Shown piece after piece: positions 3,066 through 49,009 of a stretch of DNA of 64,000 nt (positions are counted from its first letter, which is position 1; every line of letters begins with the position of its first letter). The position numbers and the translations under genes were made by a program. The DNA is taken from positions 28,163-92,162 of the forward strand of contig JAVBPX010000005.1 in the NCBI GenBank assembly GCA_031549365.1. Direction: 5' to 3'. Under the pieces are notes generated by a model. It did not search any database. It saw nothing but the letters and a program-made list of their open reading frames with translations, and had not been told where the DNA came from. The stretch is from Alphaproteobacteria bacterium. Lineage in GTDB: Bacteria > Pseudomonadota > Alphaproteobacteria > Rs-D84.

Positions 3066-3232
3066 GTATATATATTGCATTACTTTTATTGTTAATTCAA
3101 GAAAAATCCAAGATTTCACTCTCGTTAAAACCAGAATAATTGAAATTATTTTTGGTTTTAACAGCCGTGCAATTATAAATATCTTGAAATTTCGATAAAA
3201 TTCTTTATTATGTCGGTACATTGCCCGGATGG

Positions 3233-3310
3233 TGAGGCATAAAATGAATGTTAATAATATTCATTTTTGCGTAATAGAAACAACAAATTTTTAATTTGCA
3301 TGTTTCGTTG
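3233..3310 (+). mobile_element. tRNA-associated two-hairpin element, copy A
   Basis: Stem-TTAATAA-stem, then AATAG[AAAC..GTTT]CGTTG; preceded by a 10-bp duplicate of the tRNA-Leu 5' end (3223-3232 = 3339-3348). Confidence 0.6.
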
Positions 3311-3338
3311 CGAACCTTTTGGACAAAAAAGTAAATCG

Positions 3339-3425
3339 GCCCGGATGGCGGAATTGGTAGACGCGCTAGTTTCAGGTACTAGTGAACGCAAGTTCATGGA
3401 GGTTCGAGTCCTCTTTCGGGCACCA
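3339..3425 (+). tRNA. tRNA-Leu(CAG)
   Basis: Cloverleaf, anticodon arm CTAGT-TTCAGGT-ACTAG, long variable arm, CCA. Confidence 0.97.
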
Positions 3426-3432
3426 TCAATAG

Positions 3433-3460
3433 TAAAAACCGGCAATCTGCCGGTTTTTTA
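3433..3460. terminator. Bidirectional intrinsic terminator
   Basis: AAAAACCGGCA-ATC-TGCCGGTTTTT between convergent genes. Confidence 0.8.
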
Positions 3461-3465
3461 TTTAC

Positions 3466-4008
3466 TTATTTTTTAGCAATATCCGAACGCATTTTTATAA
3501 TTTTGTCCGGATTTGTTACAGTGCCGCTGCCGGGTGCGCCACGTTTGATTTTATCAACGTATTCCATGCCGGATGTAACATTACCCCAAACGGTATATTG
3601 CCCATCCAAAAATATTGCATCATCAAAACAGATGAAAAATTGGCTGTCCCCGCTGTTTACATCGTTTGAACGCGCCATTGAAACAGTTCCGCGGACGTGT
3701 GGTTCGCGTGAAAATTCGGCCTTTAACTTTTTTCCGGATCCGCCCATGCCGGTTCCCGTTGGATCACCGGTTTGGGCCATAAATCCATCAATCACACGGT
3801 GAAAAACAATGCCATCATAAAATCCAGAATCCGCCAATTCAACAATACGTTTTACGTGTTCCGGTGCCAAATCCGGGCGTAATTTAATTTCAACAGTTCC
3901 GTCTTTTAATTCCAGGTATAACATTTTTGCCTCCGTCGTTTTTGCAAATGCATTTGTTGATATAAATATTGCGACAATTAATGCCAATATGTATTTTAAA
4001 TATTTCAT
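3466..4008 (-). CDS. ppiA: Cyclophilin-type peptidyl-prolyl isomerase, exported
   Basis: FHRVIDGFMAQTGDP, SQFFI, LDGQYTVWG motifs and a signal peptide. Confidence 0.92.
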   Translation of the reverse strand: MKYLKYILALIVAIFISTNAFAKTTEAKMLYLELKDGTVEIKLRPDLAPEHVKRIVELADSGFYDGIVFHRVIDGFMAQTGDPTGTGMGGSGKKLKAEFSREPHVRGTVSMARSNDVNSGDSQFFICFDDAIFLDGQYTVWGNVTSGMEYVDKIKRGAPGSGTVTNPDKIIKMRSDIAKK

Positions 4009-4236
4009 TTTATCCCCCCGTTTAATCCATGCCAACACTGTACAATTATTTATATAATTGGTCAATTAAATTAATAATACATTTATGTTAATTCCAGAAT
4101 AATTAAAAATTATTTCCGGAATTAACAATATAAAAAACAGATAAAAATACAAATTAAATATGTCACAACCATTAAAAAACCGGCCAAATGACCGGTTATC
4201 CCTCAGGGTCAAAACCCCATGGCAATCATTGCAATA

Positions 4237-4938
4237 CTACAATGTATTCAAATATTCGCGATAACGTTGGTCGCATATTTGTTTAATTTTTTCTTGGCCA
4301 CGTTCGTTTAAATGAATTCCATCCACACACATATAGTCGCTATATTTTGGAATCGCCAATAATGTTTCACGAACAGGCACAGTCGCCAAATTATATGACG
4401 CTGCAATATTTTCCAACGCGCTTGCATACAATTCTTGGTGACGATAAATTCGACTCTTGTCCCCCAAAAATTCCATTAAGCGTGCGGCGCGTCCATGATC
4501 AGCGCCAACAATCCAATTAAAATAACGATCCGAATCAATTGGTGGCAAAGTCATAATAACCGGGCGCTTTCCTGAATTTAAAACACGTTCGATTATTTCA
4601 CGTACGTTTTTCTTGAATTCCGCATATGGTGTGTTTGGCAAATGTTCCGCGTAAGGTTTTTCACAAACTGCATCCCAATTATAATCACAATCATTTCCGC
4701 CCAATTCCAATAATACTATGTCCGATTCATCTTCCAATACGCGGGGCAATTTTTCCATCGCTTTGGCGGTTGTGCATCCGAATGCAGCCTGATTATTGAT
4801 TTCGACTTGATTGCTGCTGCCGAATAAATTTGCAGCACTATCCTTTAAAAAACGGTATTTGCCAATCAATTCGTCAAATATAACGCCTTTTAAAATGGAA
4901 TCCCCAATGATTCCTATTTTCTTTCTGATGTTTTCCAT
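4237..4938 (-). CDS. SGNH/GDSL hydrolase
   Basis: GDSI, GGND and DGIH blocks. Confidence 0.9.
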   Translation of the reverse strand: MENIRKKIGIIGDSILKGVIFDELIGKYRFLKDSAANLFGSSNQVEINNQAAFGCTTAKAMEKLPRVLEDESDIVLLELGGNDCDYNWDAVCEKPYAEHLPNTPYAEFKKNVREIIERVLNSGKRPVIMTLPPIDSDRYFNWIVGADHGRAARLMEFLGDKSRIYRHQELYASALENIAASYNLATVPVRETLLAIPKYSDYMCVDGIHLNERGQEKIKQICDQRYREYLNTL

Positions 4939-5059
4939 ATTTTCCCCTATGGTTTTGGTCAACGGTATATTATATAACCCAAAATACCAATAAAACAAGT
5001 TTGTTTTTAAATTCCGCTTTGCTTTTTATTTGGCTTTTGTAATAATCATCCGGCAACAA

Positions 5060-5959
5060 ATGGAAAATGATATGAATTTCGATGAAATAATTTTAAAATT
5101 AAAACCACAAAATCCGAAAAAAATCGCCGTGGTGGCCGCACACGATGACACAGTATTGAATGCGATTAACAATGGATATAAATTGGGATTTATCACACCA
5201 ATTTTGTGCGGAAATGCGGAAAAAATCGTGAAAATCGCGGACGCCCAAAATATCGATATTTCAAATTTTGAAATTATAAATTGTGAAAATGATTCTGAAT
5301 GCGCAAATATCGCCGTTGAATTAATTCGAAACAAACGCGCCGATATTTTAATGAAAGGATTAATCCCAACCGCCGATCTGTTACGCGCTGTATTAAATCG
5401 CGAAACCGGGATACGAGGAAATGGAATTTTATCGCATGTATCTGTTTTACAATCACCGTTACGCGATAAACCAATTTTTATGACAGACGTTGCAATGGTT
5501 ACATATCCTGATTTATCAACCAAGGTCGAATTAATAAACAATGCTGTTAAATTTGCCCGCGCAATGGGGCTTGAAACACCATTGGTGGCGGCATTGGCCG
5601 CGGTCGAGGTTGTAAACCCAAATATGCCAGCAACAATTGAAGCAAACGAATTAAAACAAATGAATAAACTAGGCGAAATTAAAAACTGTATCGTTGATGG
5701 CCCATTGGCGTTTGATTTGGCCGTATCGTCGGACGCAGCGGAACACAAGGGCTATAAATCAGATGTTGCCGGAAATGCCGACGTATTATTATTTCATAAT
5801 ATCGAGGCCGGAAATTCAACGTTAAAGGCCATGACCCATTTCGGAGGGTGTTTATTTGGCGGTATCGTAATGGGTGCTTTGGCCCCAATCGTATTGAATT
5901 CACGATCTGATTCCGAACAATCAAAATTGTATTCGATTGCCTGTGCCTGTTCCCTGTAA
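5060..5959 (+). CDS. ptb: Phosphate butyryltransferase / phosphate acyltransferase (PTA_PTB)
   Basis: ADILMKG, VDGPLAFDLAVS, IEAGN, SRSDS motifs. Confidence 0.85.
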   Translation: MENDMNFDEIILKLKPQNPKKIAVVAAHDDTVLNAINNGYKLGFITPILCGNAEKIVKIADAQNIDISNFEIINCENDSECANIAVELIRNKRADILMKGLIPTADLLRAVLNRETGIRGNGILSHVSVLQSPLRDKPIFMTDVAMVTYPDLSTKVELINNAVKFARAMGLETPLVAALAAVEVVNPNMPATIEANELKQMNKLGEIKNCIVDGPLAFDLAVSSDAAEHKGYKSDVAGNADVLLFHNIEAGNSTLKAMTHFGGCLFGGIVMGALAPIVLNSRSDSEQSKLYSIACACSL

Positions 5960-6066
5960 ATTTATGCAATTTATACGCGAAAAATATCTTTTTGAGGAAA
6001 CCGTGGAAAACGCATAAAAAGTGTGATATAATCAGCACGATATTCAAAAAATATGGGGTATTTATT

Positions 6067-6645
6067 ATGGCCGCAAAACCAGTACAAAAATTAACTTTCA
6101 AAAAGGATCAATTCGTCGTGTATCCAACACACGGGGTTGGTAAAATATTAAAGATAGAAGAGCAAAACATTGCCGGGCAAAAGGTTGAATTGATTGTAAT
6201 TGAATTCGAAAAAAACCGCATGATTCTGCGCGTCCCCGTGGAAAAGGCCGAAGTAGCGGGACTGCGCCCATTGGTTACCGCCAAAAATATGGACGAAGCA
6301 ATTCAATCCGCCAAAAAATCGGCATCTGCCAAACGCGTAATTTGGTCCCGACGCGCCCAACAATACGAAGAAAAAATCAATTCGGGCAACCCAATGGAAT
6401 TGGCCGATGTGATTCGCGATTTACAAAGACGCGATTCGACCGATATACAAACTTTTTCTGGTCGTCAAATTTATATGCGTGCCCTGGAACGCATGGCCCA
6501 AGAATTTGCAGCAATTCATAAAATCCCGGTTGATGACGCCGAAGAAAAGATTGAAAAAATATTGGGCGTGCCCAAGGAAATCGATCTGGACGCCGTTGGA
6601 TTGGATGACGAAGATGGTATTGATTCCAGCGCGGACGAGGAATAA
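6067..6645 (+). CDS. carD: CarD/CdnL family RNAP-binding regulator
   Basis: VVYPTHGVG, WSRRAQQYEEKINSG. Confidence 0.92.
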   Translation: MAAKPVQKLTFKKDQFVVYPTHGVGKILKIEEQNIAGQKVELIVIEFEKNRMILRVPVEKAEVAGLRPLVTAKNMDEAIQSAKKSASAKRVIWSRRAQQYEEKINSGNPMELADVIRDLQRRDSTDIQTFSGRQIYMRALERMAQEFAAIHKIPVDDAEEKIEKILGVPKEIDLDAVGLDDEDGIDSSADEE

Positions 6646-6736
6646 TTGATTCTTTTTGTGTGATCGTTATAGCAAATCATTAATTTTTTCTGGATTTTTT
6701 GAAAAATATCGCCAAAATATGCGTATTCGTTAACAT

Positions 6737-6811
6737 GTCCCCATCGTCTAGGGGTTAGGACGCCAGATTCTCATTCTGGAAACACGGGTTCAATTCCCGT
6801 TGGGGATGCCA
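6737..6811 (+). tRNA. tRNA-Glu(CTC)
   Basis: Cloverleaf, CCAGA-TTCTCAT-TCTGG, CCA. Confidence 0.96.
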
Positions 6812-6853
6812 ATTATTTTAAACATGCCCGAAATGGGCATTTTAAAATAAATT
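6812..6853 (+). terminator. Hairpin terminator after tRNA-Glu
   Basis: TTATTTTAAACATGCCC-GAAAT-GGGCATTTTAAAATAA. Confidence 0.7.
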
Positions 6854-6869
6854 ATATCCAACCCGGGAA

Positions 6870-6958
6870 ACAACGCACCCACCATCTGGCGACACTGCGT
6901 TTGCCAGAATGGATGTGCTATTTCGAACTATATGATTGTTAATCATATAGTTACTACA
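6870..6958 (-). mobile_element. tRNA-associated two-hairpin element, copy B
   Basis: Minus strand TGTAGT-stem-TTAACAA-stem-CGAAATAGCAC..GTGCGTTGT; abuts a 14-bp duplicate of the tRNA-Glu 3' end (6959-6972 = 6798-6811). Confidence 0.7.
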
Positions 6959-6973
6959 CGTTGGGGATGCCAC

Positions 6974-7100
6974 TAAATTTATCTAAATTCATTATCTAAA
7001 CACATTTCTCATTTTTTGCGCGGGTCACGTACCGCGTGTACGCTCCGCCGCGTCAAAAAATTTCGGAAATGCGCTTATCTAATAAATTTTTATAAATTTA
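6974..7100. repeat. Long palindromic element (family H), divergent copy
   Basis: Long imperfect inverted repeat with central GTCACGTAC..GTACGCTCC. Confidence 0.65.
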
Positions 7101-7248
7101 AGTTGATTAGCTCTAAAAAACCAATATAAAATTAAAACTATCCAACCCGGGAAAACAACAAAGTATATAACTTTTCTTTCTGCTTGAAAAAAAATCATGT
7201 TATCTATTATAATGCCGGGACTTATTAATCAAGCAAAGGAGCAGTCCC

Positions 7249-8487
7249 ATGAAAATTAAACCTTTCGCCGCTGTGCGACCACCACGTGAATTGGCATCCG
7301 AAGTGGCATCTCGTCCATACGATGTTTTAAATTCAGCCGAGGCCCAGGCCGAAGCAGGTGAAAAATCATTATTACACATCATCAAACCGGAAATTGATTT
7401 TAACCCAATTATTGATGAACATTCCCAGGCCGCGTACGACAAAGCAGTTGAAAACTTTCATCTGTGGCAAGATCGCAAATGGCTGGTCCAAGACAACAAA
7501 GAAATGTATTATATTTATGCCCAAACAATGGATGGTCGCACACAATACGGCTTGGTTGCTGCTGCAAATGTTGCAGATTATTTGGATGGAAAAATTAAAA
7601 AACACGAATTAACACGCAAAGACAAAGAAGAAGATCGCATGATCCATGTTCGTATCCAAGACGCGAATATTGAACCTGTATTCTTTGCATATCCAGATGT
7701 AAGCGAGATGAATGAATTGGTTGAAAATGTTGTTAAATCAAAATCTCCTGAATATGATTTTGTGGCCGAAGACGGCTTTGGGCACCATTTTTGGGTAATT
7801 GACGACCAAGCAACAAATGAACGTATTACTGAAATTTTCGAAAAAATTCCAGCATTATATGTTGCCGACGGACATCACCGCACAGCGGCGGCGGCATTGG
7901 TTGGTCAGGAAAAAGCCAAAAACAATCCAAACCATAATGGAACGGAAGAATACAATTTTTTCCTGGCTGTTATATTCCCAGAATCACATTTGAAAGTAAT
8001 TGATTACAATCGCTTGGTCAAAGATTTGAATGGAATGACTGCTGAACAATTCATCGAAAAATTGAATGAATCATTTGATGTTTCCGAAATTGGATCTGAA
8101 ATTTATACACCAAATAAATTGCATAATTTTTCAATGTATATTGATTCTAAATGGTATTCATTGACTGCAAAATCTGGCACATACAACGACAATGACCCAT
8201 TGGGGGTATTGGACGTTACCGTTTTGTCTAATTTAGTATTTGATAAAATTTTGGATTTGGGCGATTTGCGTACATCAAAACGAATTGATTTCGTTGGTGG
8301 GATTCGTGGATTGGGCGAATTAAAACGTCGCGTTGATTCCGGTGAAATGGCCGCTGCTTTTGCATTGTATCCAGTATCAATGAAACAAATTATTGATATC
8401 GCGGATACAGGCAATATTATGCCGCCAAAAACCACATGGTTTGAACCAAAATTGCGTTCGGGTTTGGCAATTCATAAATTGAAATAA
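7249..8487 (+). CDS. DUF1015 family protein
   Basis: PYDV, IKKHELT, ADGHHR, MPPKTTWFEPKLRSGL. Confidence 0.9.
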   Translation: MKIKPFAAVRPPRELASEVASRPYDVLNSAEAQAEAGEKSLLHIIKPEIDFNPIIDEHSQAAYDKAVENFHLWQDRKWLVQDNKEMYYIYAQTMDGRTQYGLVAAANVADYLDGKIKKHELTRKDKEEDRMIHVRIQDANIEPVFFAYPDVSEMNELVENVVKSKSPEYDFVAEDGFGHHFWVIDDQATNERITEIFEKIPALYVADGHHRTAAAALVGQEKAKNNPNHNGTEEYNFFLAVIFPESHLKVIDYNRLVKDLNGMTAEQFIEKLNESFDVSEIGSEIYTPNKLHNFSMYIDSKWYSLTAKSGTYNDNDPLGVLDVTVLSNLVFDKILDLGDLRTSKRIDFVGGIRGLGELKRRVDSGEMAAAFALYPVSMKQIIDIADTGNIMPPKTTWFEPKLRSGLAIHKLK

Positions 8488-8505
8488 TCCGCACACAAAC
8501 CACAT

Positions 8506-8531: not shown

Positions 8532-8540
8532 GTTTATTTC

Positions 8541-11265: not shown

Positions 11266-12696
11266 CTAGCCTATTTTGATAACGCATGTAATTCTGGTTT
11301 CGCGTTCGAATCCTTCTCGCAATCCCCCACGCGTAACAACAACGATGTGGTCCCCAGATTTTACAACACCCAATTTTTGCGCGATATCAGATGCAACACT
11401 TTCGTATTTTTGGCCTTTGATAACCGACGCATCAAACACAGGGATAACAGCATGGGACAGACATAATTGATTTGCAATAATTTCTTCGTCGCAAACAGCA
11501 ATGATCGGAATCATCGAACGACGAGCCGATAATTCACGTGCCGATTTTCCAGAATCTGAAAATACAACAATTGCTTTGGCATCGTTTAATTCCGCCATGT
11601 ATGCGATCGATTCAGACAAACTGGATTCGTCTGAAATATCTGGGACTCCGCTTTCTGATTCGCATGAATTTTCAATTTGATCCCATTCCGCGGACGCTAA
11701 AATACGCGCCATCGCATCAACCGTTTCAATTGGATAATCACCCATTGTTGTTTCCATTGATAACATTGTTGCGTCTGTCTTTTGATATGATGCTGTCGCA
11801 ACATCGGACACTTCGGCGCGCGTTGGATATAATGCATGAGTCATACCTTCCATCATTTGCGTTGCAACAATAATCGGTTTGTTTTTTTGACGACACATAC
11901 GTATCATTTGACGTTGAACAACAGGTACCTGTTCATATGGAATTTCAACACCCAAATCTCCGCGTGCAACCATGGCGCCATCACATGCATCAATGATTGA
12001 TTCCAAACGTTCAACTGCTTGGGGGCGCTCCAATTTTGCAATAATTAAAACTGGACGATCTGTGTGCTGTTTAATAAATTCGCGAACTTCGGCAATGTCG
12101 GATGCTTTTTGAACAAACGAAACCGCAATTAAATCAACGTTTTTTGATAATGCGTACACTAAATCTTTTTTGTCTTTTTCTGTTAATACAGATGTATTGA
12201 TTTCGGCATTTGGAATATTGAACGCCCGGCGATCCCAAATATCATCCCCACGAACCACAGTGGTTTCAACAGATTTATCCATTTTTTTTGTAACCAATAA
12301 TTCCATTTTACCGTCATTTAATAAAACTCGGGTGCCTGGCACCAAAGCCTCCATAACATCTGGATCCGGCAATTGAACACGTGTTTCATCTCCCAATTTT
12401 GGATCCAAATCCAATATGAATTTTTGTCCTGGTACCAACTTATATTTTTTACCATCCGCCCCGCCAACAAAATCGCCAATTCTGTGTTTTGGGCCCTGCA
12501 TGTCGGCCATGATCGCAATTGGTTTTCCAATTTTTTTTGAAACAGCACGAATTTTATCAATATTTTGACCGTGAAATTCATGCGCGTCGTGGCTGAAATT
12601 CAATCTGCATACATCCATACCGTGTTCGACCAATTCTTCTATGCGGTCGCACGATGCCGGCCCGATGCTGGCCACGATTTTTGTTAATTTTTTCAT
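11266..12696 (-). CDS. pyk: Pyruvate kinase
   Basis: TKIVASIGPA, RLNFSH, MVARGDLGVE, VATQMME. Confidence 0.97.
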   Translation of the reverse strand: MKKLTKIVASIGPASCDRIEELVEHGMDVCRLNFSHDAHEFHGQNIDKIRAVSKKIGKPIAIMADMQGPKHRIGDFVGGADGKKYKLVPGQKFILDLDPKLGDETRVQLPDPDVMEALVPGTRVLLNDGKMELLVTKKMDKSVETTVVRGDDIWDRRAFNIPNAEINTSVLTEKDKKDLVYALSKNVDLIAVSFVQKASDIAEVREFIKQHTDRPVLIIAKLERPQAVERLESIIDACDGAMVARGDLGVEIPYEQVPVVQRQMIRMCRQKNKPIIVATQMMEGMTHALYPTRAEVSDVATASYQKTDATMLSMETTMGDYPIETVDAMARILASAEWDQIENSCESESGVPDISDESSLSESIAYMAELNDAKAIVVFSDSGKSARELSARRSMIPIIAVCDEEIIANQLCLSHAVIPVFDASVIKGQKYESVASDIAQKLGVVKSGDHIVVVTRGGLREGFERETRITCVIKIG

Positions 12697-15858: not shown

Positions 15859-15956
15859 TGATTAAAAATGTGGAATGTTAATAACATTCCACATTTTTTG
15901 ATTATCTGTACAGAATTTGCAATTTGAGCCAGCGAGAAAACTCTCCCATTAATAAT

Positions 15957-20078: not shown

Positions 20079-21167
20079 ATGAAATCAGGGTCAAAAAATA
20101 TGACAAAATCTTTTTTTTATTTTACTCCATTTTTTATCGATGCATTACAAATTCCAAGCCATGGATATACGACACATTATGATACGGACGTTTCAGACTT
20201 GCGTCTGTACGTAACATCGCGAGGCGCAAAAACTTTTTTTGTCAGAAAACGCATTAACGGTCGCGACCAAAGAATAATTCTTGGATCGTATCCGGACACT
20301 TCGATTGATGCTGCTAGGGAATACGCAATACAAAAGATGGCTGCACTTAAAAAAAAGCCAACCACCAAAAAGAAACATTCGATAAATCAAATTTCTTTGC
20401 GCGAATTCGTCCCAATTTATATTCGCAAAAAGATCCGGCGCAGGCCTGAATCCCGTGCGAAATTGGTTAAAACAATCAATCGGTTATGGGAATCATTGTT
20501 CCCATTTAATTTAAACGATATTACCGACGAACATGTGTTAACACTCCATCGATATTTGGAAAAGCATCACGGGCCATCCATTGCCAACCGAATGTTAGAA
20601 ATCATGCGCGGATTGTACAGATATGCAAATTTGAACAATTACGCAGATCATAATCCTGCCATATCCGTATCGAAATTTATCGAGGTTCGCCGCCAACGCA
20701 GGTTAAACTCATCCGAAATTCAAACATTGGTTCGAGCCATTAAATCCGAAAAAAACTCAACATTTCGGGCAGCATTATTGATGATGATTTATACAGGGGA
20801 AAAGAAATCTCGTGTTTTTTCAATGCGTTGGTCCGATTTGGACTTTAACCAAAGTTTATGGGAAACATCTGCTGGACCACGCGCATTGGGTGATTTGGCT
20901 GTGGTTTTGCTGGAAAAATTACCACAACGATCCGCATGGGTGTTCCCAAACAAAAAATCATCGTCTGGGCATATCGTTGACCCCAAGCGTCCCTGGAAAC
21001 GCATTTTAAAAAATACAAATATAAACAATGTTCAATTGGATGATATCAATAAAACTTTAAAACAAATTTTTGATAAAGCAATGCGTTCTTTGGAAACCCA
21101 ATATCCAACACTGGAAGACGAACGCCGCATAATTAATCAAACACTATCAAAATTAAAGATTTCATAA
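20079..21167 (+). CDS. P4-like tyrosine integrase homologue with arm-binding domain and degenerate catalytic motifs
   Basis: LRLYVTSRGAKTF..LGSYP..SIDAAR (arm-DNA-binding), YTGEKKSRVFSMRWSDLD, WVFP; HDLR replaced by DDIN. Confidence 0.8.
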   Translation: MKSGSKNMTKSFFYFTPFFIDALQIPSHGYTTHYDTDVSDLRLYVTSRGAKTFFVRKRINGRDQRIILGSYPDTSIDAAREYAIQKMAALKKKPTTKKKHSINQISLREFVPIYIRKKIRRRPESRAKLVKTINRLWESLFPFNLNDITDEHVLTLHRYLEKHHGPSIANRMLEIMRGLYRYANLNNYADHNPAISVSKFIEVRRQRRLNSSEIQTLVRAIKSEKNSTFRAALLMMIYTGEKKSRVFSMRWSDLDFNQSLWETSAGPRALGDLAVVLLEKLPQRSAWVFPNKKSSSGHIVDPKRPWKRILKNTNINNVQLDDINKTLKQIFDKAMRSLETQYPTLEDERRIINQTLSKLKIS

Positions 21168-40170: not shown

Positions 40171-40284
40171 GAGATTGCTTCGCAACAAGGTTTTACGACG
40201 CAACCATGGAACCAAAGATCCTTGTTGCTGTTCGGATGGAAAAACAATTATTAATCGTTTTCTGGATCCATCCCGAGTAATGAC
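40171..40284. repeat. Composite REP-like palindrome (GAGATTGC...AATGAC)
   Basis: GAGATTGCTTCG start, nested stems GCAACAAGG/CCTTGTTGC and GGATGGA/TCCATCC, GTAATGAC end. Confidence 0.55.
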
Positions 40285-40346: not shown

Positions 40347-40420
40347 TGGGTCATCGTCTAACGGCAGGACAAGAGTTTTTGGTTCTCTTTATCTAGGTTC
40401 GAATCCTAGTGACCCAACCA
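40347..40420 (+). tRNA. tRNA-Gln(TTG)
   Basis: Cloverleaf, AGAGT-TTTTGGT-TCTCT (U31:U39 mismatch), CCA. Confidence 0.92.
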
Positions 40421-42482: not shown

Positions 42483-43634
42483 TTAATGAAACATAAAGCA
42501 TTGGACGTTATGGGATATACATTTACGGATTATTTCGTTGGCGGAAGTTTCCGATAATTTATTTGCACGCACACGCCATAGTCCCGAATATTGTTCAACA
42601 GATGTATTTATTCCAAACAGATTTTTAACCCGTGTTTGTTGTTCGGTAGCCGCGTTTTTGGATGAGAATGCACCAAATTGAACACCCATAGATCCCGATC
42701 CCCAGTTTTTTTGTTCAATTGGTTTGGTGGTTGTTTTTATGGATGATTTTGGTTGTTCTGTACCACTTTCGGAATCATCGTGAGTAATATTACCATTTGA
42801 TGTAGTTTTTGTTTGGTAATTTGTGAAATTACCGGGTTTTTTCCCATCCATCAGATCAAATGAATAATCCAATAGTTTAACAGACGTCTTTAAACGTTCC
42901 GCAGACGATGTTGAGCCCAATACAACCGACATTACCATATCGTCGCCACGTTTTGCTGTTGCAACCAGGTTATAGCCTGATTTTGCAGTGTATCCTGTTT
43001 TCATACCGTTTGCACCAGGATAAACATTTAAAATTTGATTATGTGTGTAATAAGTTTGGCCATTATATGTAAATGAACGTTCATTAAAATATTTATAATA
43101 TTGTGGGAAGTGTTTATAAATGGCGAGCGAGAGCAAGGCGAGGTCGCGTGCTGTTGAAACCTGATCCATCGAAGTCAAACCAGATGCATTTTTAAAGTTT
43201 GTTTTTGATAATCCAATTTCAGATGCAACACGGGTCATTAACGATCCAAAGTCCCCCTCGTCCCCCGTCAGATTTTCAGATAAAACTGTGGCAACGTCGT
43301 TGGCAGAACGGATAATCAAAGCCTTGATCGCGGTTTCAACCGATATTTTTTCGCCTGGTTTCAATCCCAATTTTGTTTGGGGTTTTTCACTGGCACTTTT
43401 TGATACTATTAAATTTTGGTTTAATGTTAATCGACCCTTGTCCAATGCGTCAAATACCAGATACAAGGTCATAATTTTTGTTAATGACGCCGGGTAATTT
43501 TCATCACGGGCATTTTCTTGGTATAAAACACGACCATCAGTCATGTCGATTGATATCAAAGCCTTGTAATCTGCACGGGCAACATTGCAGATAAATAACT
43601 GAATTGATAAAAAAATAAGTATAAGTCGTTTCAT
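42483..43634 (-). CDS. dacA: D-alanyl-D-alanine carboxypeptidase (S11) with C-terminal SPOR domain
   Basis: PASLTK, SAND, KTG motifs; VQFGAFSS SPOR signature. Confidence 0.9.
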   Translation of the reverse strand: MKRLILIFLSIQLFICNVARADYKALISIDMTDGRVLYQENARDENYPASLTKIMTLYLVFDALDKGRLTLNQNLIVSKSASEKPQTKLGLKPGEKISVETAIKALIIRSANDVATVLSENLTGDEGDFGSLMTRVASEIGLSKTNFKNASGLTSMDQVSTARDLALLSLAIYKHFPQYYKYFNERSFTYNGQTYYTHNQILNVYPGANGMKTGYTAKSGYNLVATAKRGDDMVMSVVLGSTSSAERLKTSVKLLDYSFDLMDGKKPGNFTNYQTKTTSNGNITHDDSESGTEQPKSSIKTTTKPIEQKNWGSGSMGVQFGAFSSKNAATEQQTRVKNLFGINTSVEQYSGLWRVRANKLSETSANEIIRKCISHNVQCFMFH

Positions 43635-43659
43635 TCCAACATTCCAATATTGCATAGTA

Positions 43660-43975
43660 TAATGATTTATTGAATATTGGTCAAAGTAAAATATTAACAG
43701 TTAATACAAAACAATATAAATATTATATATAAGATATTATTTTTATTGTTATTAGCGTTGGTTATGTTGGAAATTGTTTTTAAGGTTTGTTTTTTGAATT
43801 ATTAACAATATAACATGTTGATTTTTATTAATATTTGGAGTTTTCAACAGTATTGTTAATAACTTTTTAACATGTTGAGAATAGTTTTATTATTAAGATT
43901 TTTAAGATATTTAATGGTTTTATTGTTTTTATTGTTAATAACTTGTTTTTTTTAACAAAAAACGTTAAAATAGCT
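43660..43975. other. oriC: Probable replication origin (oriC)
   Basis: Very AT-rich gene-free interval with repeated DnaA-box-like 9-mers, near parAB/parS/rsmG; + strand becomes G/T-rich and all later CDS are on +. Confidence 0.6.
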
Positions 43976-43990
43976 GAGAGAGGATAGAGA

Positions 43991-44269
43991 ATGAGGTTGC
44001 CTGTATTAAAAGCAATTGCAAATCCAACACGGATTTTTTATGTGCCATATCATTTGGCACTGATGAATTTTTTTATCCAATTCATAGTATTTATAGTTTT
44101 ATTAATAGTTACAGTTGGAAATTTTAATCCATTATGGTTTTTATTAAATGTTATTTTTGTTCATTTTATTTTAATGGGGATTTCGCGGTCCGAGCCACAA
44201 ATGGGACAAATTTTATCAGCAAAATTAAAATTATTTAAAGTTTCACCACCAAAGGTATTAAGGCCGTAA
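43991..44269 (+). CDS. virB3: Type IV secretion protein VirB3-like
   Basis: Small two-TM protein with PVLKAIANPTRIFYVPY, directly before virB4. Confidence 0.7.
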   Translation: MRLPVLKAIANPTRIFYVPYHLALMNFFIQFIVFIVLLIVTVGNFNPLWFLLNVIFVHFILMGISRSEPQMGQILSAKLKLFKVSPPKVLRP

Positions 44270-44271
44270 AT

Positions 44272-46704
44272 ATGCAACAGTTTATGAATTTATTTGTTCA
44301 AGATATTATGCCAATGAATCTAACAATTATTGGTTTAGGCTTGGTTTTAATATTTTTAATATTGTTATTTATTATTCCAATATTATCGAATATGTTGTTT
44401 CCGGCGTTTTCGTATAGTTCTTTTGCAAAATATTTGCCTTTTAAACAACCATTCAAAGATAAGGTTTCAATAGAATTAAATGATGGTGGATTGGTTAGGG
44501 TTTATAAATTAAAAGGTGTTCAAACATCGTTACAAGATCAACAACAAAAAGAACAATTTTTAGATTTGCGCGCTCAATTATTTCAGCAAATAAAAGATCC
44601 AAATATAACATTTCGGTTTTTTATGTTGCGGGAAAAAATGTCTGTGAAAACAGATTATACGTTTGATGAACCAGTTTTACAGAAAATTTATGATAAATGG
44701 AATAGTCAAGGTATCAAAGTTTTTGATAATCAATATTATTTGGTTGTTAGTATTTCTGGGAATAAACCAGAGGATAGGATAGGCAGCGTTTCAACAATGG
44801 TTGAATCAATATTGGCACCATATCAACCAAAATTATGTTTTAATTCGGATGAAAATAATGCTGGGTCTTTTTATTCCAGGATTTTATCACCAATTACTCG
44901 TCCAATTTTAAAAGGATTAAATTCAAGTATGAACGATTTGATGACATCTGATCAGGTTGAGTTTTTAGAAGGTGGTAAGATTCGTTTTTCCGCGGGAGAT
45001 ATTGAAAAATATGCAGGTTTGGTTTCTATTAAAACGGCGCCTGATTTTTTTGACGAGGATTTTTTCAACGATTTAGGCACAGTTTCATGTGAAATGGTTA
45101 CGATGAATGCGTTTCAATTATTATCAATTGCAAAAACAGAAGCATTAATTAAACAAAAGCAAAGTGTTGCAACGTCTAATAAAGAATCGGAAGATATTGC
45201 CGTTGAACAAATAGAAGAAACAATGACGATGATGGATGAAAATATTTCAGGAACACAGAGTTTAATGAATTATTATCCTTTGTTTGTTTTATATGGTGAA
45301 ACAGCAGATGAAGTCGATAAATCAATTCAAGAATTACAGAAAATTTGTGCTGCGTATGGAATTAGTCCAGTTGTTGAAAATTTTGCCTCTAAAGTTTCGT
45401 GGTTTTCAATGTTGCCTGGGTTTGATGTATTTCCGCGTACTTATAAATTATTATCGCGAACTGCGGCGATTACTTGGCCGTTATCAACGGTGCCTGTTGG
45501 TATTCCAAATTCAGATTGGGGACCGGGTCCCATTGTTGTGTTTCCAACGTCGCTGGGGACACCGTATCAATTCCAGTTTCATGTGTCTGAACAATCTGGT
45601 GCTGTTGGACACACATTAACAATTGGGCCCACAGGTCAGGGTAAAACCACTTTATTTTCATTTTTAATTTCACAATCTTTGCGACATCCAAAGTTAAAAT
45701 CATTTTTCTTTGATCGTAATCGTGGGGCCGAAATTTTTACATTAGCAACAGGTGGTAAATATTTAACTTTTGAAAACAAATCACAAAATGCAGATAAAAT
45801 TAATGCTGGGTTTCAAACCAGGTTAAATCCGTTATTAATGGAAGATTCTGCATCAAATCGTGATTTTTTACGTCGTTGGTTTTCAATGATTTCAGGTCAG
45901 GATGACCCAAAATCGTTGGATGAAATTGCGCGAGCGGTTGCGGTCAATTTTGATTATTTAGATCCAAAAGATAGGATGTTAAAAAATTTATACAACAGCT
46001 GTTTTTCATCCGAGGGTAAAATGCGCCCTGCGCTTAAAAAATGGGTGGATGATTTACAATACGGTTCTGTGTTTAATGAGCCACAAGATACTTTGGATTT
46101 GTATTCCCGGTTGTCCACGTTTGATTTTACAGATATTTTAAGTGATGAAACTTTGGCCCCAGCAGTTATCAGTTATTTAATTCAGCGCATTAACAGTTTG
46201 ACTGTGGCCCAGGGTAATCCATCATTAATAATGATTGATGAAACGGCGCCGATGTTGGCCAACCCTATGTTCAGACAGAATTTTATAACAGGGTTGCAAG
46301 AAGGACGTAAAAATCGTCAGGCATATATGGCTGCGTTCCAACAGGCAAATATAATTGATAAGTTGGGAATAGGTGATGTTGTTCGAGGACAGGCGCAAAC
46401 AATACTGTTTTTCAGAAATCCTGGTGCTGATCCATTGGATTATCAACATTGGCGTTTAAATCCACGTGAAATGGCATTTATTCAGGGTAAGGCATATCCA
46501 AATTTAAAACGCGCAGTATTGTTATCGCGCCCGGTTACCGGGGAATCGGTTGTTTTAAATACAGAATTGGGTGGTTTAGGATCATATTTGAAATTATTTG
46601 AATCTGGTCGTAGCAGTGTTTTATTGGCGGAAGAATTGTATAGCAAGATGGGTGGGGAATTTGTTGATACGTACCTGCGTCGAGTAAGCACAGAAAATGT
46701 TTGA
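44272..46704 (+). CDS. virB4: Type IV secretion ATPase VirB4
   Basis: GHTLTIGPTGQGKT, FDRNRGAE, IMIDE, RKN. Confidence 0.9.
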   Translation: MQQFMNLFVQDIMPMNLTIIGLGLVLIFLILLFIIPILSNMLFPAFSYSSFAKYLPFKQPFKDKVSIELNDGGLVRVYKLKGVQTSLQDQQQKEQFLDLRAQLFQQIKDPNITFRFFMLREKMSVKTDYTFDEPVLQKIYDKWNSQGIKVFDNQYYLVVSISGNKPEDRIGSVSTMVESILAPYQPKLCFNSDENNAGSFYSRILSPITRPILKGLNSSMNDLMTSDQVEFLEGGKIRFSAGDIEKYAGLVSIKTAPDFFDEDFFNDLGTVSCEMVTMNAFQLLSIAKTEALIKQKQSVATSNKESEDIAVEQIEETMTMMDENISGTQSLMNYYPLFVLYGETADEVDKSIQELQKICAAYGISPVVENFASKVSWFSMLPGFDVFPRTYKLLSRTAAITWPLSTVPVGIPNSDWGPGPIVVFPTSLGTPYQFQFHVSEQSGAVGHTLTIGPTGQGKTTLFSFLISQSLRHPKLKSFFFDRNRGAEIFTLATGGKYLTFENKSQNADKINAGFQTRLNPLLMEDSASNRDFLRRWFSMISGQDDPKSLDEIARAVAVNFDYLDPKDRMLKNLYNSCFSSEGKMRPALKKWVDDLQYGSVFNEPQDTLDLYSRLSTFDFTDILSDETLAPAVISYLIQRINSLTVAQGNPSLIMIDETAPMLANPMFRQNFITGLQEGRKNRQAYMAAFQQANIIDKLGIGDVVRGQAQTILFFRNPGADPLDYQHWRLNPREMAFIQGKAYPNLKRAVLLSRPVTGESVVLNTELGGLGSYLKLFESGRSSVLLAEELYSKMGGEFVDTYLRRVSTENV

Positions 46705-46818
46705 AAATCAGCGCCTCTAAACAAGTTTTTAAATTTTTAGACCCTGATATACCACAATGTATACCGCGGGCCAAAAAATTTAAAAATTCTTTACAATCAT
46801 CTGATTTTGAAACATTTT
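46694..46818 (+). repeat. Long palindromic element (family H) overlapping the virB4 stop
   Basis: AAAATGTT-TGAAAATCAG...CTGATTTTGA-AACATTTT. Confidence 0.85.
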
Positions 46819-46883
46819 AAAAAGTTGGGTTGATCATCACATTCTGACGCATCTTGGTGTTTTTGGTTTAATAGGAAAAATGG

Positions 46884-47513
46884 ATGAAAGTATTATTGGG
46901 ATTGATTTTATCAGTATTTTGTTTTTCCGCAGGATTTGCGGCGGATCCTTGTGTTTTGGAAAAAAAGAATGTTTTGGTTTATGTCAAGCCCGTGCCTTGG
47001 GATATGGAGGTTCAACAACCGTTGCGTCCGATCAGTATTGAACAATCTTTGCATGGTTTAACGACCGCCGTTATGGCCGAAGGGTATCGGTTAACCGTTG
47101 ATTTAATCCCAATTGATGATGGATTTTGTGTTGTATTGGATAGGGTCGAGGTTGTTTCCGGATTTACAAATTTTATGATACAGATTGATTCTGCGCATCC
47201 AAAAAATTCGTGTGTTTATAATGCAATTTATGATCATGAAATGTTACATGTTAAAGCATATCATTCTGTTATGAATGATTTATATCCACAGATCGAAGAA
47301 ACAATTACCAAAGTGGCCAATCAAATTTATCCTAAATATATTCCACATGAAAATGATACCAGTAAAACAATTGATCAAATGGAACAAGAATTACGCAATG
47401 CGCCAATGACTGTATTATTACGTCAGAAAATTGAGGCCGAGAAAGAAATTAAAAATAAGGCGATTGATAAAAATCCGAACAGTGATTTGATTAAAAGATG
47501 TGAAAATCAATGA
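46884..47513 (+). CDS. Exported protein with HExxH motif (putative Zn peptidase, DUF922-like)
   Basis: Signal peptide; IYDHEMLHV. Confidence 0.6.
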   Translation: MKVLLGLILSVFCFSAGFAADPCVLEKKNVLVYVKPVPWDMEVQQPLRPISIEQSLHGLTTAVMAEGYRLTVDLIPIDDGFCVVLDRVEVVSGFTNFMIQIDSAHPKNSCVYNAIYDHEMLHVKAYHSVMNDLYPQIEETITKVANQIYPKYIPHENDTSKTIDQMEQELRNAPMTVLLRQKIEAEKEIKNKAIDKNPNSDLIKRCENQ

Positions 47514-47548
47514 ATTCTGTACATTCATCCCATTTTGATTGATTTTGT
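47493..47548 (+). repeat. Internally deleted family H element
   Basis: AAAAGATG-TGAAAAT left end fused to right-arm AATTC..TCATCCCATTTTGA. Confidence 0.5.
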
Positions 47549-47623
47549 AGATGGTGTGTCATTTTTTGAAGTTTGTTAAATTTGTATAGTTGTGGTATAA
47601 TTTTTGCGTACAAAGGGGTCTTT

Positions 47624-48157
47624 ATGCAAGTTACACCAGAATTAGCCAAACAATTATTTAATGCTATTTTGCAAATTCCGGAATTGAATTTAAACAAACC
47701 AGAAACAGGTTGTTTTATTCGTGCAAAATTAATTGCTGAATTTTTAAAAGGCCAGGGTGTTAATCCAAAGATTGTTTTGGTAAAAAACCCGGGAATTATG
47801 GGTAAAATTTTTTATAAATTAAATGGAAAAATTGAACACAAAATGGTTAATTGGAAATATCATGTTGCGGCTGGGACGGAAATTAACGGCGAAACAATAG
47901 TTTTTGATCCTGTGTTATTTAATGCGCCAGAAACATTAAAATATTGGGCATCCAGGATGTTAATTGGGGAAAAATCAATTTCAGATGACTATGTTTTAGT
48001 TAATGATTATGAACCGATTGGTAAAAATTTTATATCCAAAGAAATTGAAAGATTGTCCGCGCAAAATCACCAAGAATGGTTTGAAAAATCTGAAAACCCG
48101 GAATGTGAATTGGTTGTTCCAAATTCATTTTGGTCCAGAAAATTTGGCAGAGAATAG
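47624..48157 (+). CDS. Protein-glutamine glutaminase (deamidase)-like protein
   Basis: GCFIRA, WKYHVA, VFDP: Cys-His-Asp triad pattern. Confidence 0.75.
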   Translation: MQVTPELAKQLFNAILQIPELNLNKPETGCFIRAKLIAEFLKGQGVNPKIVLVKNPGIMGKIFYKLNGKIEHKMVNWKYHVAAGTEINGETIVFDPVLFNAPETLKYWASRMLIGEKSISDDYVLVNDYEPIGKNFISKEIERLSAQNHQEWFEKSENPECELVVPNSFWSRKFGRE

Positions 48158-48210
48158 GGTCGTATTTTAGATTCGGTATTGAAAAACCCCCATTATGGGG
48201 GTTTGAATTT

Positions 48211-48286
48211 TGGTGGAGTCAATGGGAGTCGAACCCACGACCTCTACATTGCGAACGTAGCGCTCTACCAACTGAGCTATGACCCC
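48211..48286 (-). tRNA. tRNA-Ala(CGC)
   Basis: G3:U70, CTACG-TTCGCAA-TGTAG, CCA. Confidence 0.95.
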
Positions 48287-48287
48287 A

Positions 48288-48413
48288 AAAAAGTTTGAAA
48301 ATACATTTCTTGGTCGCGTTTTTAATTTTTTGCCACGGCACGTACCATATGTACGCTGGCGCGCGGTCAAAAAATGAAAAAAACCGCCCAATAAACGCAT
48401 TTTGAAACTTTTT
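48288..48413 (+). repeat. Long palindromic element (family H)
   Basis: AAAAAGTT-TGAAAAT...ATTTTGA-AACTTTTT, central CACGTAC..GTACGCT. Confidence 0.8.
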
Positions 48414-48520
48414 GCTATACATCTAAAATTAGATGAATTCTTTTGCAATCATCATATTTTGATGCGTTTCAAATTCTAATATTTTAAACAAAACCCACCC
48501 GAAGGTGGATTTGTTATTTA

Positions 48521-48598
48521 TGGGGCGAATAACCGGATTCGAACCGGCGACATCCAGTACCACAAACTGGCGCTCTAACCAACTGAGCTATATCCGCC
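48521..48598 (-). tRNA. tRNA-His(GTG) with encoded G-1 and C73
   Basis: CCAGT-TTGTGGT-ACTGG, CCA. Confidence 0.96.
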
Positions 48599-48606
48599 AC
48601 AAACTT

Positions 48607-48682
48607 TGGTGGAGCTGATCGGACTCGAACCGACGACCTCTTGCATGCCATGCAAGCGTTCTACCAACTGAACTACAACCCC
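48607..48682 (-). tRNA. tRNA-Ala(GGC)
   Basis: G3:U70, CTTGC-ATGGCAT-GCAAG, CCA. Confidence 0.96.
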
Positions 48683-48746
48683 AAGTATTTACAATATTTT
48701 AGTAGCATGCAAGAGGTTTTCAAAAATATTTCATATTTTTGACCTC

Positions 48747-48843
48747 ACAACGCACCTGCCATTCGTCTCTGTCCGTTGGACTTCGCCGAAATGGACGTGC
48801 TATTTCATAAAAATAAATATTATTAACATTTATTTTTATTACA
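48747..48843 (-). mobile_element. tRNA-associated two-hairpin element, copy C
   Basis: Minus strand TGTAAT-stem-TTAATAA-stem-ATGAAATAGCAC..GTGCGTTGT, interrupting a second tRNA-Ala copy. Confidence 0.72.
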
Positions 48844-48882
48844 CATGCCATGCAAGCGTTCTACCAACTGAACTACAACCCC
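48844..48882 (-). pseudogene. Exact duplicate of tRNA-Ala(GGC) nt 1-39
   Basis: Identical to 48644-48682 (200-bp offset). Confidence 0.9.
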
Positions 48883-49009
48883 AAAATGTATGAAAATGGG
48901 TGATTAAAAACAAGTTTATTGTTTTTTAGAACCCTTATGTACGCTTGTGTACACCGCGGGCCCTAAAAAACAATAAATTCTTTATACTCATCCCGTTTTG
49001 ATGCATTTT
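48883..49009 (+). repeat. Long palindromic element (family H)
   Basis: 111-bp core nearly identical to 53018-53128. Confidence 0.9.

Follow-up and report, generated by a model that had tools for sequence, protein, structure and literature searches.

Short, structured, non-coding units in this 0.91 Mb alphaproteobacterial genome lie, at eight loci, between an intact gene and a displaced copy of part of that gene. The reading that we favor, with confidence about evenly divided, is that these are non-autonomous integrative elements of miniature size that carry att-like repeats and are mobilized in trans by some recombinase. Each integrated unit would comprise a two-hairpin scaffold, a unit-specific stretch in which a hairpin or a promoter-like site often occurs, and a short block that repeats the target gene's end exactly, with the scaffold serving as the constant, structure-defined arm of a non-coding element family.

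In the window, a 64,000-nt stretch of this genome, an initial annotation had described three such elements beside tRNA genes for Leu, Glu and Ala. All three (copies A, B and C) are present, with the exact tRNA duplicates listed below and repeat-to-repeat distances of 116 bp for A, 161 bp for B and 200 bp for C. Bit scores are from the covariance model (R1 and R2), and intact tRNA genes are ARAGORN calls.

3184..3211, plus strand: promoter-like site 5' of the displaced tRNA-Leu piece; sigma-70-like, 10/12 positions, 16-nt spacer
3223..3232, plus strand: displaced tRNA-Leu(CAG) nt 1-10; exact 10-nt direct repeat of 3339-3348
3231..3313, plus strand: scaffold copy A, two hairpins; R1 102.3 bits, R2 87.7 bits; fold -22.3 kcal/mol
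3314..3338, plus strand: unique spacer from copy A to tRNA-Leu; no other genomic match in self-BLAST
3339-3425, plus strand: intact tRNA-Leu(CAG)
6737..6811, plus strand: intact tRNA-Glu(CTC)
6812..6867, no strand: copy B spacer, a hairpin region within a long imperfect palindrome reaching the tRNA 3' end; inverted arms
6868..6960, minus strand: scaffold copy B; R1 32.4 bits, R2 53.9 bits; fold -34.5 kcal/mol
6959..6972, plus strand: displaced last 14 nt of tRNA-Glu, abutting the copy B 5' end; exact direct repeat of 6798-6811
15859..15935, plus strand: weak model match, a stem-loop like the first hairpin, directly 3' of tRNA-Val; R1 24.0 bits, E 0.0032
40193..40274, minus strand: fourth copy in the window, a "type 2" variant; R1 42.8 bits, R2 66.5 bits
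48607..48682, minus strand: intact tRNA-Ala(GGC)
48683..48744, minus strand: copy C spacer, with a promoter-like site and an inverted 13-nt tRNA-Ala copy
48745..48845, minus strand: scaffold copy C, second hairpin lengthened; R1 61.3 bits, R2 68.3 bits; fold -27.1 kcal/mol
48844..48884, minus strand: displaced tRNA-Ala nt 1-39 plus 2 upstream bases; 41-nt exact direct repeat

The promoter-like site before copy A is the best sigma-70-like match within 3100-3460 and stops 11 nt short of 3223; transcription starting there would traverse copy A into tRNA-Leu. The 10-nt repeat at this locus is weak alone, since random 32-mers of this genome typically have a second match of 12-15 nt somewhere, but its place and register make it credible. 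At copy B, the spacer palindrome has 29-nt arms (6794-6822 and 6841-6869, 72% complementary), and a 151-nt RNA-library contig of depth 2.7, a form of data from which strand, ends and level are not readable, spans 6851-7001. The promoter-like site in the copy C spacer runs from 48723 to 48696 (10/12 positions), and the inverted copy, at 48705-48717, is 100% complementary over its 13 nt to tRNA-Ala nt 35-47 (48636-48648). Another repeat family directly abuts the displaced tRNA-Ala piece, from 48883 outward. As for an assembly artifact, both duplications in 2900-7400 are spanned, with 0 differences, by third-party contigs from a DNA run, although this is not independent support because that run may be the source of the present assembly. 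Neither an empty site nor a circle or excision joint was seen, a point against integration; the contigs of the one DNA run list none for copies A and B, though contigs cannot show absence.

The scaffold has two dissimilar hairpins with conserved single-stranded linkers between them, and two hairpins form in all 13 copies folded alone (MFE -16 to -34.5 kcal/mol). The early observation that stems differ in sequence yet keep pairing is borne out by strong compensatory covariation across 22 copies. In the model-fitted alignment 91.6% of cells pair and 20 of 23 base pairs show changes on both sides, values reached in 0 of 500 shuffles, with slid controls pairing at 37-51%; because the alignment was fitted to the proposed structure, these statistics lean towards it. 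Stems that vary while pairing is kept are as expected of a site recognized by shape, and the enzyme may well recognize the folded scaffold rather than one sequence. First- and second-hairpin variants are shared among copies in different combinations, as mosaics. The two scaffold ends are dissimilar, and direct repeats are either absent (15 copies) or 10-69 nt long, unlike the terminal inverted repeats and short, fixed-length target duplication of a MITE; in 4 of the 23 copies, inverted scores between the two flanks attain the 95th percentile of controls.

Across the whole genome, the covariance model found 23 scaffold copies, all outside credible ORFs, in units of about 100-200 bp that themselves contain no ORF. 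Seven adjoin a duplicated tRNA piece; one more is located in the 5' end of a murG-like gene, next to a duplicate of part of that protein-coding gene. The other 15, all intergenic, lack any flanking direct repeat that reaches 10 nt. The initial annotation had placed the element always between a tRNA gene and a duplicated piece of the same tRNA; this is true of the seven, and most further copies proved to be unlinked to tRNA fragments, those 15 having no duplicate of any kind. A tRNA gene lies within 110 nt of 9 of the 23 copies, whereas such neighborhoods make up about 1.5% of the genome, an enrichment that counts for integrative elements. The fourth window copy is 73 nt from tRNA-Gln (40347-40420) and has no flanking repeat; the weak match beside tRNA-Val, also found in a hairpin scan, was left out of the count. 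The scaffold was not found in 150 genomes of the same order or, by exact-pattern scans, in two large collections. Consistent with the earlier impression that the element belongs to no described family, tRNAs alone reached the Rfam gathering threshold in the 64-kb window, and they alone passed in 20 loci with scaffold copies, where all other matches fell far below it.

Polarity is identical in all eight duplicated loci: the displaced piece, 10-69 nt long, directly adjoins the scaffold at its 5' end, and a gap of 16-67 nt separates the scaffold 3' end from the intact gene. Seven of these are tRNA loci with direct repeats of a tRNA segment, one gene intact and one partial. Two further small element families repeat the layout at Met, Arg(CCT), Cys and a tRNA-like gene, with the same polarity in 4/4 units of the second family and in the single unit at tRNA-Met; with the scaffold family, they leave scars of this kind on about 11 of 45 tRNA genes. 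What was noticed at three loci, a small element at several tRNAs, at varied positions and with an intact gene kept, extends to more loci and to two other families. In Leu, Ala, Glu and Ser the repeated blocks stop no more than 2 nt from the gene terminus; at both Lys genes they extend into the flank. Six tRNA blocks (Glu, Lys-ctt, Ser, Met, Arg-cct and Cys) are the last 14-20 nt of the gene, the part that Williams reportedly described in 2002 as the usual place of integrase crossovers. At tRNA-Cys, one 20-nt block occurs three times in a tandem array, always stopping on the same base, and two complete units and a partial one separate the copies. At the murG-like locus, the stop of an upstream ftsW-like ORF borders directly on the left copy, the rebuilt gene has its RBS-like site and start codon within the unit-specific stretch, and the 37-nt block carries one difference, which is synonymous. 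The fixed polarity, the blocks at gene termini, the same-base array and the murG-like gene rebuilt from the unit all count for integration, and the tRNA-Thr block, 13 nt internal to the gene and short of its end, counts against it.

One rather unlikely alternative is that a transposon-like, MITE-like insert, made of the scaffold and its 3' stretch, entered by staggered cleavage, that fill-in duplicated 10-69 bp of target, and that insertions in essential genes survive only if the duplication reaches the gene end. Near-perfect direct repeats of variable length fit this idea, as do the outermost and innermost flanks of the tRNA-Cys array, which are identical at 82 of 83 nt over block and adjacent sequence, as from a long duplication of native flank. 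Copy A, with a good, native-looking promoter 5' of the displaced piece and a 10-nt block, likewise resembles a plain insertion with target duplication, and to that extent speaks against integrative elements. Long, variable target duplications are known in print (PMC2853133). However, a mechanism that always duplicates should have marked the 15 repeat-free copies, which are equally preserved, and insertion in random orientation does not predict an orientation to the intact gene that is fixed in every duplicated locus. The 3' stretches are unique to each copy, so the copies are no recent products of one master, and the three tRNA-Cys events end at the same base. Under the integrative reading, the repeat-free copies would have to be a different kind of insertion, or no insertions, which counts against that reading.

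Genomic placement suggests another explanation, which we consider improbable. In 17 of the 23 copies the scaffold 3' end faces the 3' end of the neighboring gene, and 10 lie between convergent genes (crude ORF calls, at least 90 aa), the typical position of REP/BIME sequences. The scaffold could thus be a resident REP/BIME-like structure with a cellular role in termination, insulation or RNA stability, where fork stalling leads to local duplications by template switching. Stalling at tRNA-gene arms and scaffold hairpins would leave the scaffold at the joint of duplications, some direct and some inverted. Such a process would accommodate the mosaic copies, the 2-5 nt that junctions have in common with the scaffold start, and a genome in which no mobility enzyme was found. 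It would also explain inverted 11-13 nt copies of junction-proximal gene sequence, here tRNA arms, which occur in the unit-specific stretches of 3/8 duplicated loci versus 9/3000 control windows and which the integrative model does not predict, so that they count against it. Yet a joint at one scaffold position in 8/8 loci, and at one tRNA-Cys base three times, is too precise for microhomology, the same architecture recurs in two other small families, and the genome has no REP-associated Y1 transposase.

No integrase gene lies within or adjacent to any unit, and the genome yielded neither a multi-copy ORF nor a transposase gene. PF01548 (IS110) and PF01797 (Y1, RAYT-type) gave 0 matches in this 97.6% complete genome, reverse transcriptases gave none at the family cut-off, and PF07282 (TnpB) gave one 62-aa ORF at 20.7 bits, below cut-off; the searches for RNA-guided enzymes covered the IS110, TnpB and reverse transcriptase families. 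The Pfam Phage_integrase search returned three genes, one XerC-like, one XerD-like and one divergent recombinase; the divergent tyrosine recombinase lies in the window at about 20079-21167. That no partner enzyme was found is listed in favor of non-autonomous integrative elements, while the lack of a dedicated integrase beside any unit counts against them.

A further idea, which we regard as very improbable, is that the units encode guide-plus-scaffold RNAs. The gene-derived 5' piece, in some units with an inverted 3' piece, would guide an RNA-directed recombinase or nuclease, as omega RNAs do for IscB/TnpB and bridge RNAs for IS110. There is indeed a variable gene-derived segment fused to a constant structured scaffold, and in three units plus one imperfect case a segment 3' of the scaffold is complementary to the other strand across the junction; two-part, two-strand recognition is a feature of bridge RNAs. 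The RNA-library contig spans copy B together with its 5' piece, and transcription from the promoter-like site at 3184-3211 would include copy A along with its own, but contigs cannot show the strand, ends or level of an RNA. No IS110, TnpB-class or reverse transcriptase gene was detected at family cut-offs, the scaffold has no Rfam match, a guide would vary from 10 to 69 nt, and the 5' flanks of the 15 duplicate-free copies match nothing elsewhere in the genome above background. Excluding A, C and the murG-like locus, the duplicated copies (five of eight) run antisense to both neighbors and lack an evident promoter, and wobble asymmetry, G-U versus A-C, is 15 to 7 only. The early suggestion of RNA-directed targeting is not supported on these grounds. 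Its companion, a variable guide with a constant scaffold, survives at the DNA level as a variable address, since each element joins a different gene-derived block to the same scaffold.

If the units are integrative elements, a trans-acting site-specific recombinase would insert the unit into a gene at a fixed point next to the scaffold 5' end. The block carried by the unit would restore the target, while the gene's original end would stay as a fragment abutting the scaffold, comparable to attL/attR of tRNA-targeting islands. Candidate enzymes include the XerC-like, XerD-like and divergent tyrosine recombinases, one large serine recombinase, or a protein from an unassembled phage or plasmid. 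A given integrase normally has a single site, and the use of at least 12 different sites counts against this model; a double-stranded circle of 110-200 bp is also physically awkward. From the original proposal of a non-autonomous tRNA-targeting mobile element, this model keeps the varied tRNA positions, both orientations and the intact gene, and drops the constant tie to a tRNA duplicate, which seven of the 23 copies show. A bolder extension, which we hold to be doubtful, is a new class of miniature, gene-less integrative cassettes in which the gene-derived block by the scaffold is a programmable address, read as DNA or RNA, that would let one trans-acting enzyme reach at least 12 sites, in tRNA arms and ends and a coding gene, with the target always rebuilt.

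Integrative elements of about 150 bp, if that is what these are, would be to integrases what MITEs are to transposases and would show how little DNA site-specific integration needs. Such scars mark roughly one in four tRNA genes of a 0.9 Mb genome, and fragments of this kind can mislead tRNA annotation and break assemblies. The pairing of one scaffold with many gene-derived blocks raises the question of whether the carried block chooses the target, in which case it would be a natural re-addressable integration module.

IS110 bridge RNAs and IscB/TnpB omega RNAs share with these units a target-derived variable segment on a constant scaffold and, in some units, a second segment that matches the opposite strand across the junction; the present units differ in that IS110 and TnpB were not detected, the segment length is far more variable and the scaffold is much shorter. 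REP/BIME sequences and REPINs are short palindromic units outside genes, present in many copies that combine as mosaics, mostly located past gene ends and with covarying stems. The scaffold family is likewise extragenic, palindromic, present in 23 copies and mosaic, but its genome has no RAYT/Y1 transposase, its two dissimilar hairpins have conserved linkers, and we know of no reports of REPs carrying duplicated gene ends. Integron attC sites, whose folded shape is conserved over sequence and recognized by a Xer-related tyrosine recombinase, belong to cassettes that can be tiny and non-coding. The units resemble attC sites and ORF-less cassettes in a scaffold conserved by shape and in very small, non-coding size; unlike integrons, they come with no integron integrase, attI or cassette array, their targets are tRNA gene arms, and attC core motifs were not identified in the scaffold.

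PMC2853133 describes insertions whose target duplications are long and variable, from 30 to over 400 bp, as well as duplications of 19-26 bp for IS1630. As there, target repeats of tens of base pairs flank an insert without transposase or inverted ends, and their length varies per event, but those inserts carry genes and were found through strain comparison, whereas here the unit is tiny, structured, non-coding and of fixed polarity, with most copies repeat-free. tRNA fragments as integration scars are described in PMC9897764, where tRNA-targeting elements of 9-23 kb and about 121 kb carry genes; the present units, of about 110-200 bp, have no ORF and no adjacent integrase. They differ from tRNA-targeting islands also in that a single 0.91 Mb genome offers them at least 12 target sites, among them tRNA 5' ends and a protein-coding gene. 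With tRNA-targeting prophages, ICEs and genomic islands that use tyrosine integrases, they share tandem accretion at one tRNA and blocks that mostly comprise the final 14-20 nt of the gene or reach from an arm to its end.

The window corresponds to G000:C15:28163-92162, where G000 is its source assembly and C1 to C15 are that assembly's contigs. The genome comprises 911,163 bp in 15 contigs, with ~39% G+C and a completeness of 97.6%; the relatives used for comparison have genomes of 0.7-1.1 Mb and all belong to other genera. When coordinates and exact repeats were checked in the sequence, the three loci described in the initial annotation (copies A, B, and C, beside tRNA-Leu, tRNA-Glu, and tRNA-Ala) proved to be placed and built as it had said, and a fourth copy of the same two-hairpin scaffold lies between them.

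3231-3313, + strand: copy A scaffold, with tRNA-Leu nt 1-10 duplicated exactly before it; intact tRNA-Leu from 3339
6868-6960, - strand: copy B scaffold, directly next to a perfect duplicate of the final 14 nt of tRNA-Glu (6959-6972 = 6798-6811)
48745-48845, - strand: copy C scaffold, directly next to a perfect 41-nt duplicate of the tRNA-Ala start
40193-40274: fourth scaffold copy in the window

The duplications at copies A and B were bridged with 0 differences by contigs built independently from a DNA run, which may be the assembly's own source data. In one sparsely covered contig from that run (depth 4.1 vs ~36), positions 4079 and 6839 are connected through 32 letters of other sequence; a repeat artefact could account for this, as could a variant or relative that lacks ~2.7 kb including tRNA-Glu.

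Genome-wide, a loop-anchored hairpin scan, nhmmer, and two covariance models (R1 and R2) agree on 23 copies of the scaffold. Two hairpins form in all 13 copies that were folded singly. In an alignment of 22 copies, fitted to the structure and thus leaning towards it, 91.6% of cells are paired (37-51% in a control with partners shifted by 1-3 columns), 20 of 23 pairs carry changes on both sides, and none of 500 shuffles matches the observed values, upholding the earlier claim that the stems vary yet keep pairing. A wobble-pair strand test counted only 15 G-U against 7 A-C after removal of two misaligned columns. The constant parts are all single-stranded: the 5' start, the first hairpin's 7-nt loop, the stretch linking the two hairpins, and, at the 3' end, a motif of 5 nt. 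Copies are mosaics, one first-hairpin variant occurring with different second-hairpin variants and vice versa, and in a "type 2" subgroup conservation extends over a longer 5' part. An inverted repeat from flank to flank around the scaffold was not significant, with the control 95th percentile reached in 4 of 23 copies. Directly after tRNA-Val, a hairpin at 15859-15935 of the window has the 7-nt loop of the scaffold's first hairpin, on a stem that consists of the conserved 5' start motif.

The family was not found outside this genome by the searches used, which can miss divergent relatives. At gathering and E-value thresholds, Rfam returned only tRNAs for the window and the loci holding copies; the initial annotation had counted a match to an existing Rfam family against its proposal, and the scaffold matched none. 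When R2 was run on 150 other genomes of the order, under stricter filters that may lose weak matches, the single marginal match (E 0.0063) turned out to be a plain hairpin that scores equally on both strands on re-scanning. Exact patterns, which miss variants, gave 0 matches (two patterns in a collection of genome contigs, one in metagenome contigs). A pattern for the hairpin only retrieved 24 metagenome loci, and R2 confirmed none of them (best E 0.017). When the copy C locus was compared with 40 relatives by BLAST, essentially nothing besides the tRNA matched, the exceptions being three weak matches (38-41 bits) to the A/T-rich part of the first hairpin in relatives G024, G037, and G040.

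The element had been described as always lying between a tRNA gene and a duplicated piece of the same tRNA. That "always" does not survive the full set, in which only 8 of 23 copies have a flanking direct repeat. These repeats span 10 to ~69 nt, and seven are tRNA pieces (Leu, Glu, Ala, Lys-CTT, Lys-TTT, Ser-TGA, and an internal 13 nt of Thr); both Lys repeats take in flanking sequence, that of Lys-TTT including a terminator-like hairpin. The eighth, 37 nt with one mismatch, comes from the 5' end of a murG-like ORF, the sole protein-coding target. The other 15 copies are intergenic, with no flanking repeat above background. Across the family, checking 3' stretches against the flanks of other copies as donors gave no match. 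Even so, nine of the 23 copies lie within 110 nt of a tRNA gene, neighborhoods that by our own arithmetic make up ~1.5% of the genome, which ties the family to tRNA genes.

At all eight duplicated loci the displaced piece, the leftover duplicate of the gene end, touches the 5' end of the scaffold, while the 3' end faces the intact gene, with a copy-specific stretch of 16-67 nt between the two. With polarity fixed in this way, the orientation of the scaffold relative to the gene is set only by which gene end is hit: it is co-oriented at 5'-end targets (Leu, Ala, and murG-like) and antisense at 3'-end targets. Read from sequence, the left copy at the murG-like locus is continuous with the stop of an upstream ftsW-like ORF, and the copy-specific stretch supplies the working gene with a ribosome-binding-like site and start codon of its own. 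The best promoter-like sites at two tRNA loci are as follows.

3184-3211: copy A, upstream of the displaced piece
48723-48696: copy C, inside the copy-specific stretch

Scanning all 45 tRNA genes with 400 nt on either side for exact copies of at least 11 nt, a cut-off too high for Leu (10 nt) and Ser (9 nt exact), and dropping rows that reflected mere similarity between neighboring tRNAs (Asp/Thr, Lys/Gly, Gly/Tyr, and Ala/His/Ala), added four loci, the first four below; the fifth entry gives the array at the tRNA-Cys locus, and the sixth a tRNA-like gene.

tRNA-Met, contig 1: last 14 nt duplicated
tRNA-Arg(CCT): last 17 nt duplicated, plus a 12-nt inverted T-arm copy
tRNA-Cys: last 19-20 nt duplicated
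tRNA-Arg(TCT): nt 8-27 copied upstream
C5:15739-16170: tandem array at tRNA-Cys, with a 20-nt tRNA 3' block three times, each with the same end base
C14:~11290-11396: tRNA-like 3' region, last 15 nt duplicated beside a second-family unit

The tRNA-Met locus holds a divergent scaffold relative with an identical loop. At tRNA-Arg(TCT), the left fragment (C7:101199-101260) matches gene nt 1-27 with one mismatch, no scaffold separates it from the gene, and it runs on into a tRNA-like anticodon arm with the same anticodon and a different yet paired stem, as if it came from another allele of the gene. A second small family, with a variable hairpin and two invariant parts (a 10-nt start and a 14-nt motif), occurs at tRNA-Arg(CCT), tRNA-Cys, and the tRNA-like gene on contig 14, and in all four units its 5' end touches a displaced block of 15-23 nt. 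Two full units and one partial unit lie between the three blocks of the tRNA-Cys array, whose outermost and innermost flanks are identical at 82 of 83 nt. The contig 14 region, with the T-arm and acceptor end of tRNA-Arg(TCT), received no ARAGORN call even at a relaxed threshold; elsewhere on that contig (C14:155784-155856) ARAGORN reports a tRNA of undetermined type with a two-base anticodon. In total, scars are present at 11 of the 45 called tRNA genes, as well as at the tRNA-like gene and the murG-like gene.

Another abundant repeat, ~120 nt long and folding as one long hairpin, has at least 11 copies genome-wide, and composite-unit arrays of ~205-265 nt per unit, made of several different small hairpin modules, occur at many contig ends of the assembly.

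48883-49009: ~120-nt hairpin repeat, in the window
~46694-46818: same repeat, in the window
~50292-50376: same repeat, in the window
~53010-53127: same repeat, in the window
~61498-61578: same repeat, in the window
C11:1-730: composite-unit array
C13:8870-9300 and 20450-20782: composite-unit arrays
C3:1-140: composite-unit array
C12:1-144: composite-unit array

The G+C-rich core of the ~120-nt repeat is conserved, and its outermost stem arms differ per copy yet are complementary, as expected if it occupied the center of terminator-like palindromes that were there before it. One copy lies immediately against the displaced tRNA-Ala piece. The composite-unit arrays, to which some "type 2" scaffold copies are attached, probably break the assembly.

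Integration of units (scaffold, copy-specific stretch, and block) by site-specific recombination is the best fit to these loci, and we give it about an even chance. It is favored by the fixed polarity, by blocks whose ends mostly coincide with gene termini or fall close to them, with a preference for the last 14-20 nt, by three events at the same tRNA-Cys base, and by rebuilt gene ends that have their own signals. The unit would come with its own duplicate of the gene end, displacing the original. This reading is weakened by the 15 copies without a repeat and by copy A, which resembles a plain insertion with a 10-bp duplication. Transposon-type insertion with a long and variable target duplication, for which PMC2853133 offers a precedent, would cover copy A, and we regard it as unlikely.

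Inverted copies of gene sequence are also left unexplained by site-specific recombination, which weakens it further. In three of the eight loci the copy-specific stretch contains an exact inverted copy, 11-13 nt long, of the gene sequence located at or just past the junction (control, 9/3000 windows), copy B has a 29-nt inverted version with 72% complementarity, and tRNA arms are involved in every case, copy B included. By eye, a T-arm-like stem-loop stands between scaffold and terminator-like hairpin in several units of both families. As a further alternative, the duplicated loci could be template-switch by-products around a resident REP/BIME-like structure, an origin that seems to us decidedly improbable.

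Site-specific recombination would need an enzyme, and here too the reading is weakened: no integrase lies in or beside any unit, and one enzyme would have to serve many different sites. Pfam-based genome searches found three tyrosine recombinases, scored by NCBIfam as XerC-like, XerD-like, and a divergent protein in the window, and one large serine recombinase.

Window ~20079-21167: divergent tyrosine recombinase ORF, 362 aa, weak match (~25-32 bits), distinct from the XerC-like and XerD-like genes
C8:49258-50778: large serine recombinase, 506 aa, the sole one in the genome, ~1.8 kb from tRNA-Ser(GGA)

The ORF at ~20079-21167 is, by its sequence, a candidate trans-acting enzyme. The same Pfam-based searches found no IS110, Y1, or reverse-transcriptase domains and only a sub-threshold TnpB match, and no ORF of at least 100 aa occurs in near-identical copies in the genome, so the units are non-autonomous within the assembled sequence. 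Reverse transcription from a primer-binding site, suggested by several 5' pieces antisense to tRNA 3' ends, was rejected: no reverse transcriptase was found, two loci have sense 5' pieces, and one target is protein-coding.

A guide-plus-scaffold RNA, in which the displaced piece would serve as guide, strikes us as very improbable. One 151-nt RNA-library contig spans 6851-7001, covering copy B and its 5' piece, at a depth of 2.7, although such contigs give no strand, ends, or level; none of the listed RNA-library pieces covers copy A, and a lack of cover is in general uninformative. The 5' flanks of the 15 copies without a repeat have no match elsewhere above the 12-15 nt reached by random 32-mers of the genome.

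Integration scars made of tRNA fragments, insertions with long target duplications, REP/BIME mosaics, and shape-recognized recombination sites are already known. In the literature searched, we found no account of gene-less units this small that occur at a quarter of one genome's tRNA genes and pair one scaffold with many gene-derived blocks. As it is the shape of the scaffold, rather than its sequence, that is conserved, we infer that the recombining enzyme would read a folded site. Integron integrases read folded attC sites, and the scaffold may be recognized in an analogous way. The units would also share the attL/attR logic that PMC9897764 describes for tRNA-targeting islands, reduced here to a non-coding unit of ~110-200 bp.
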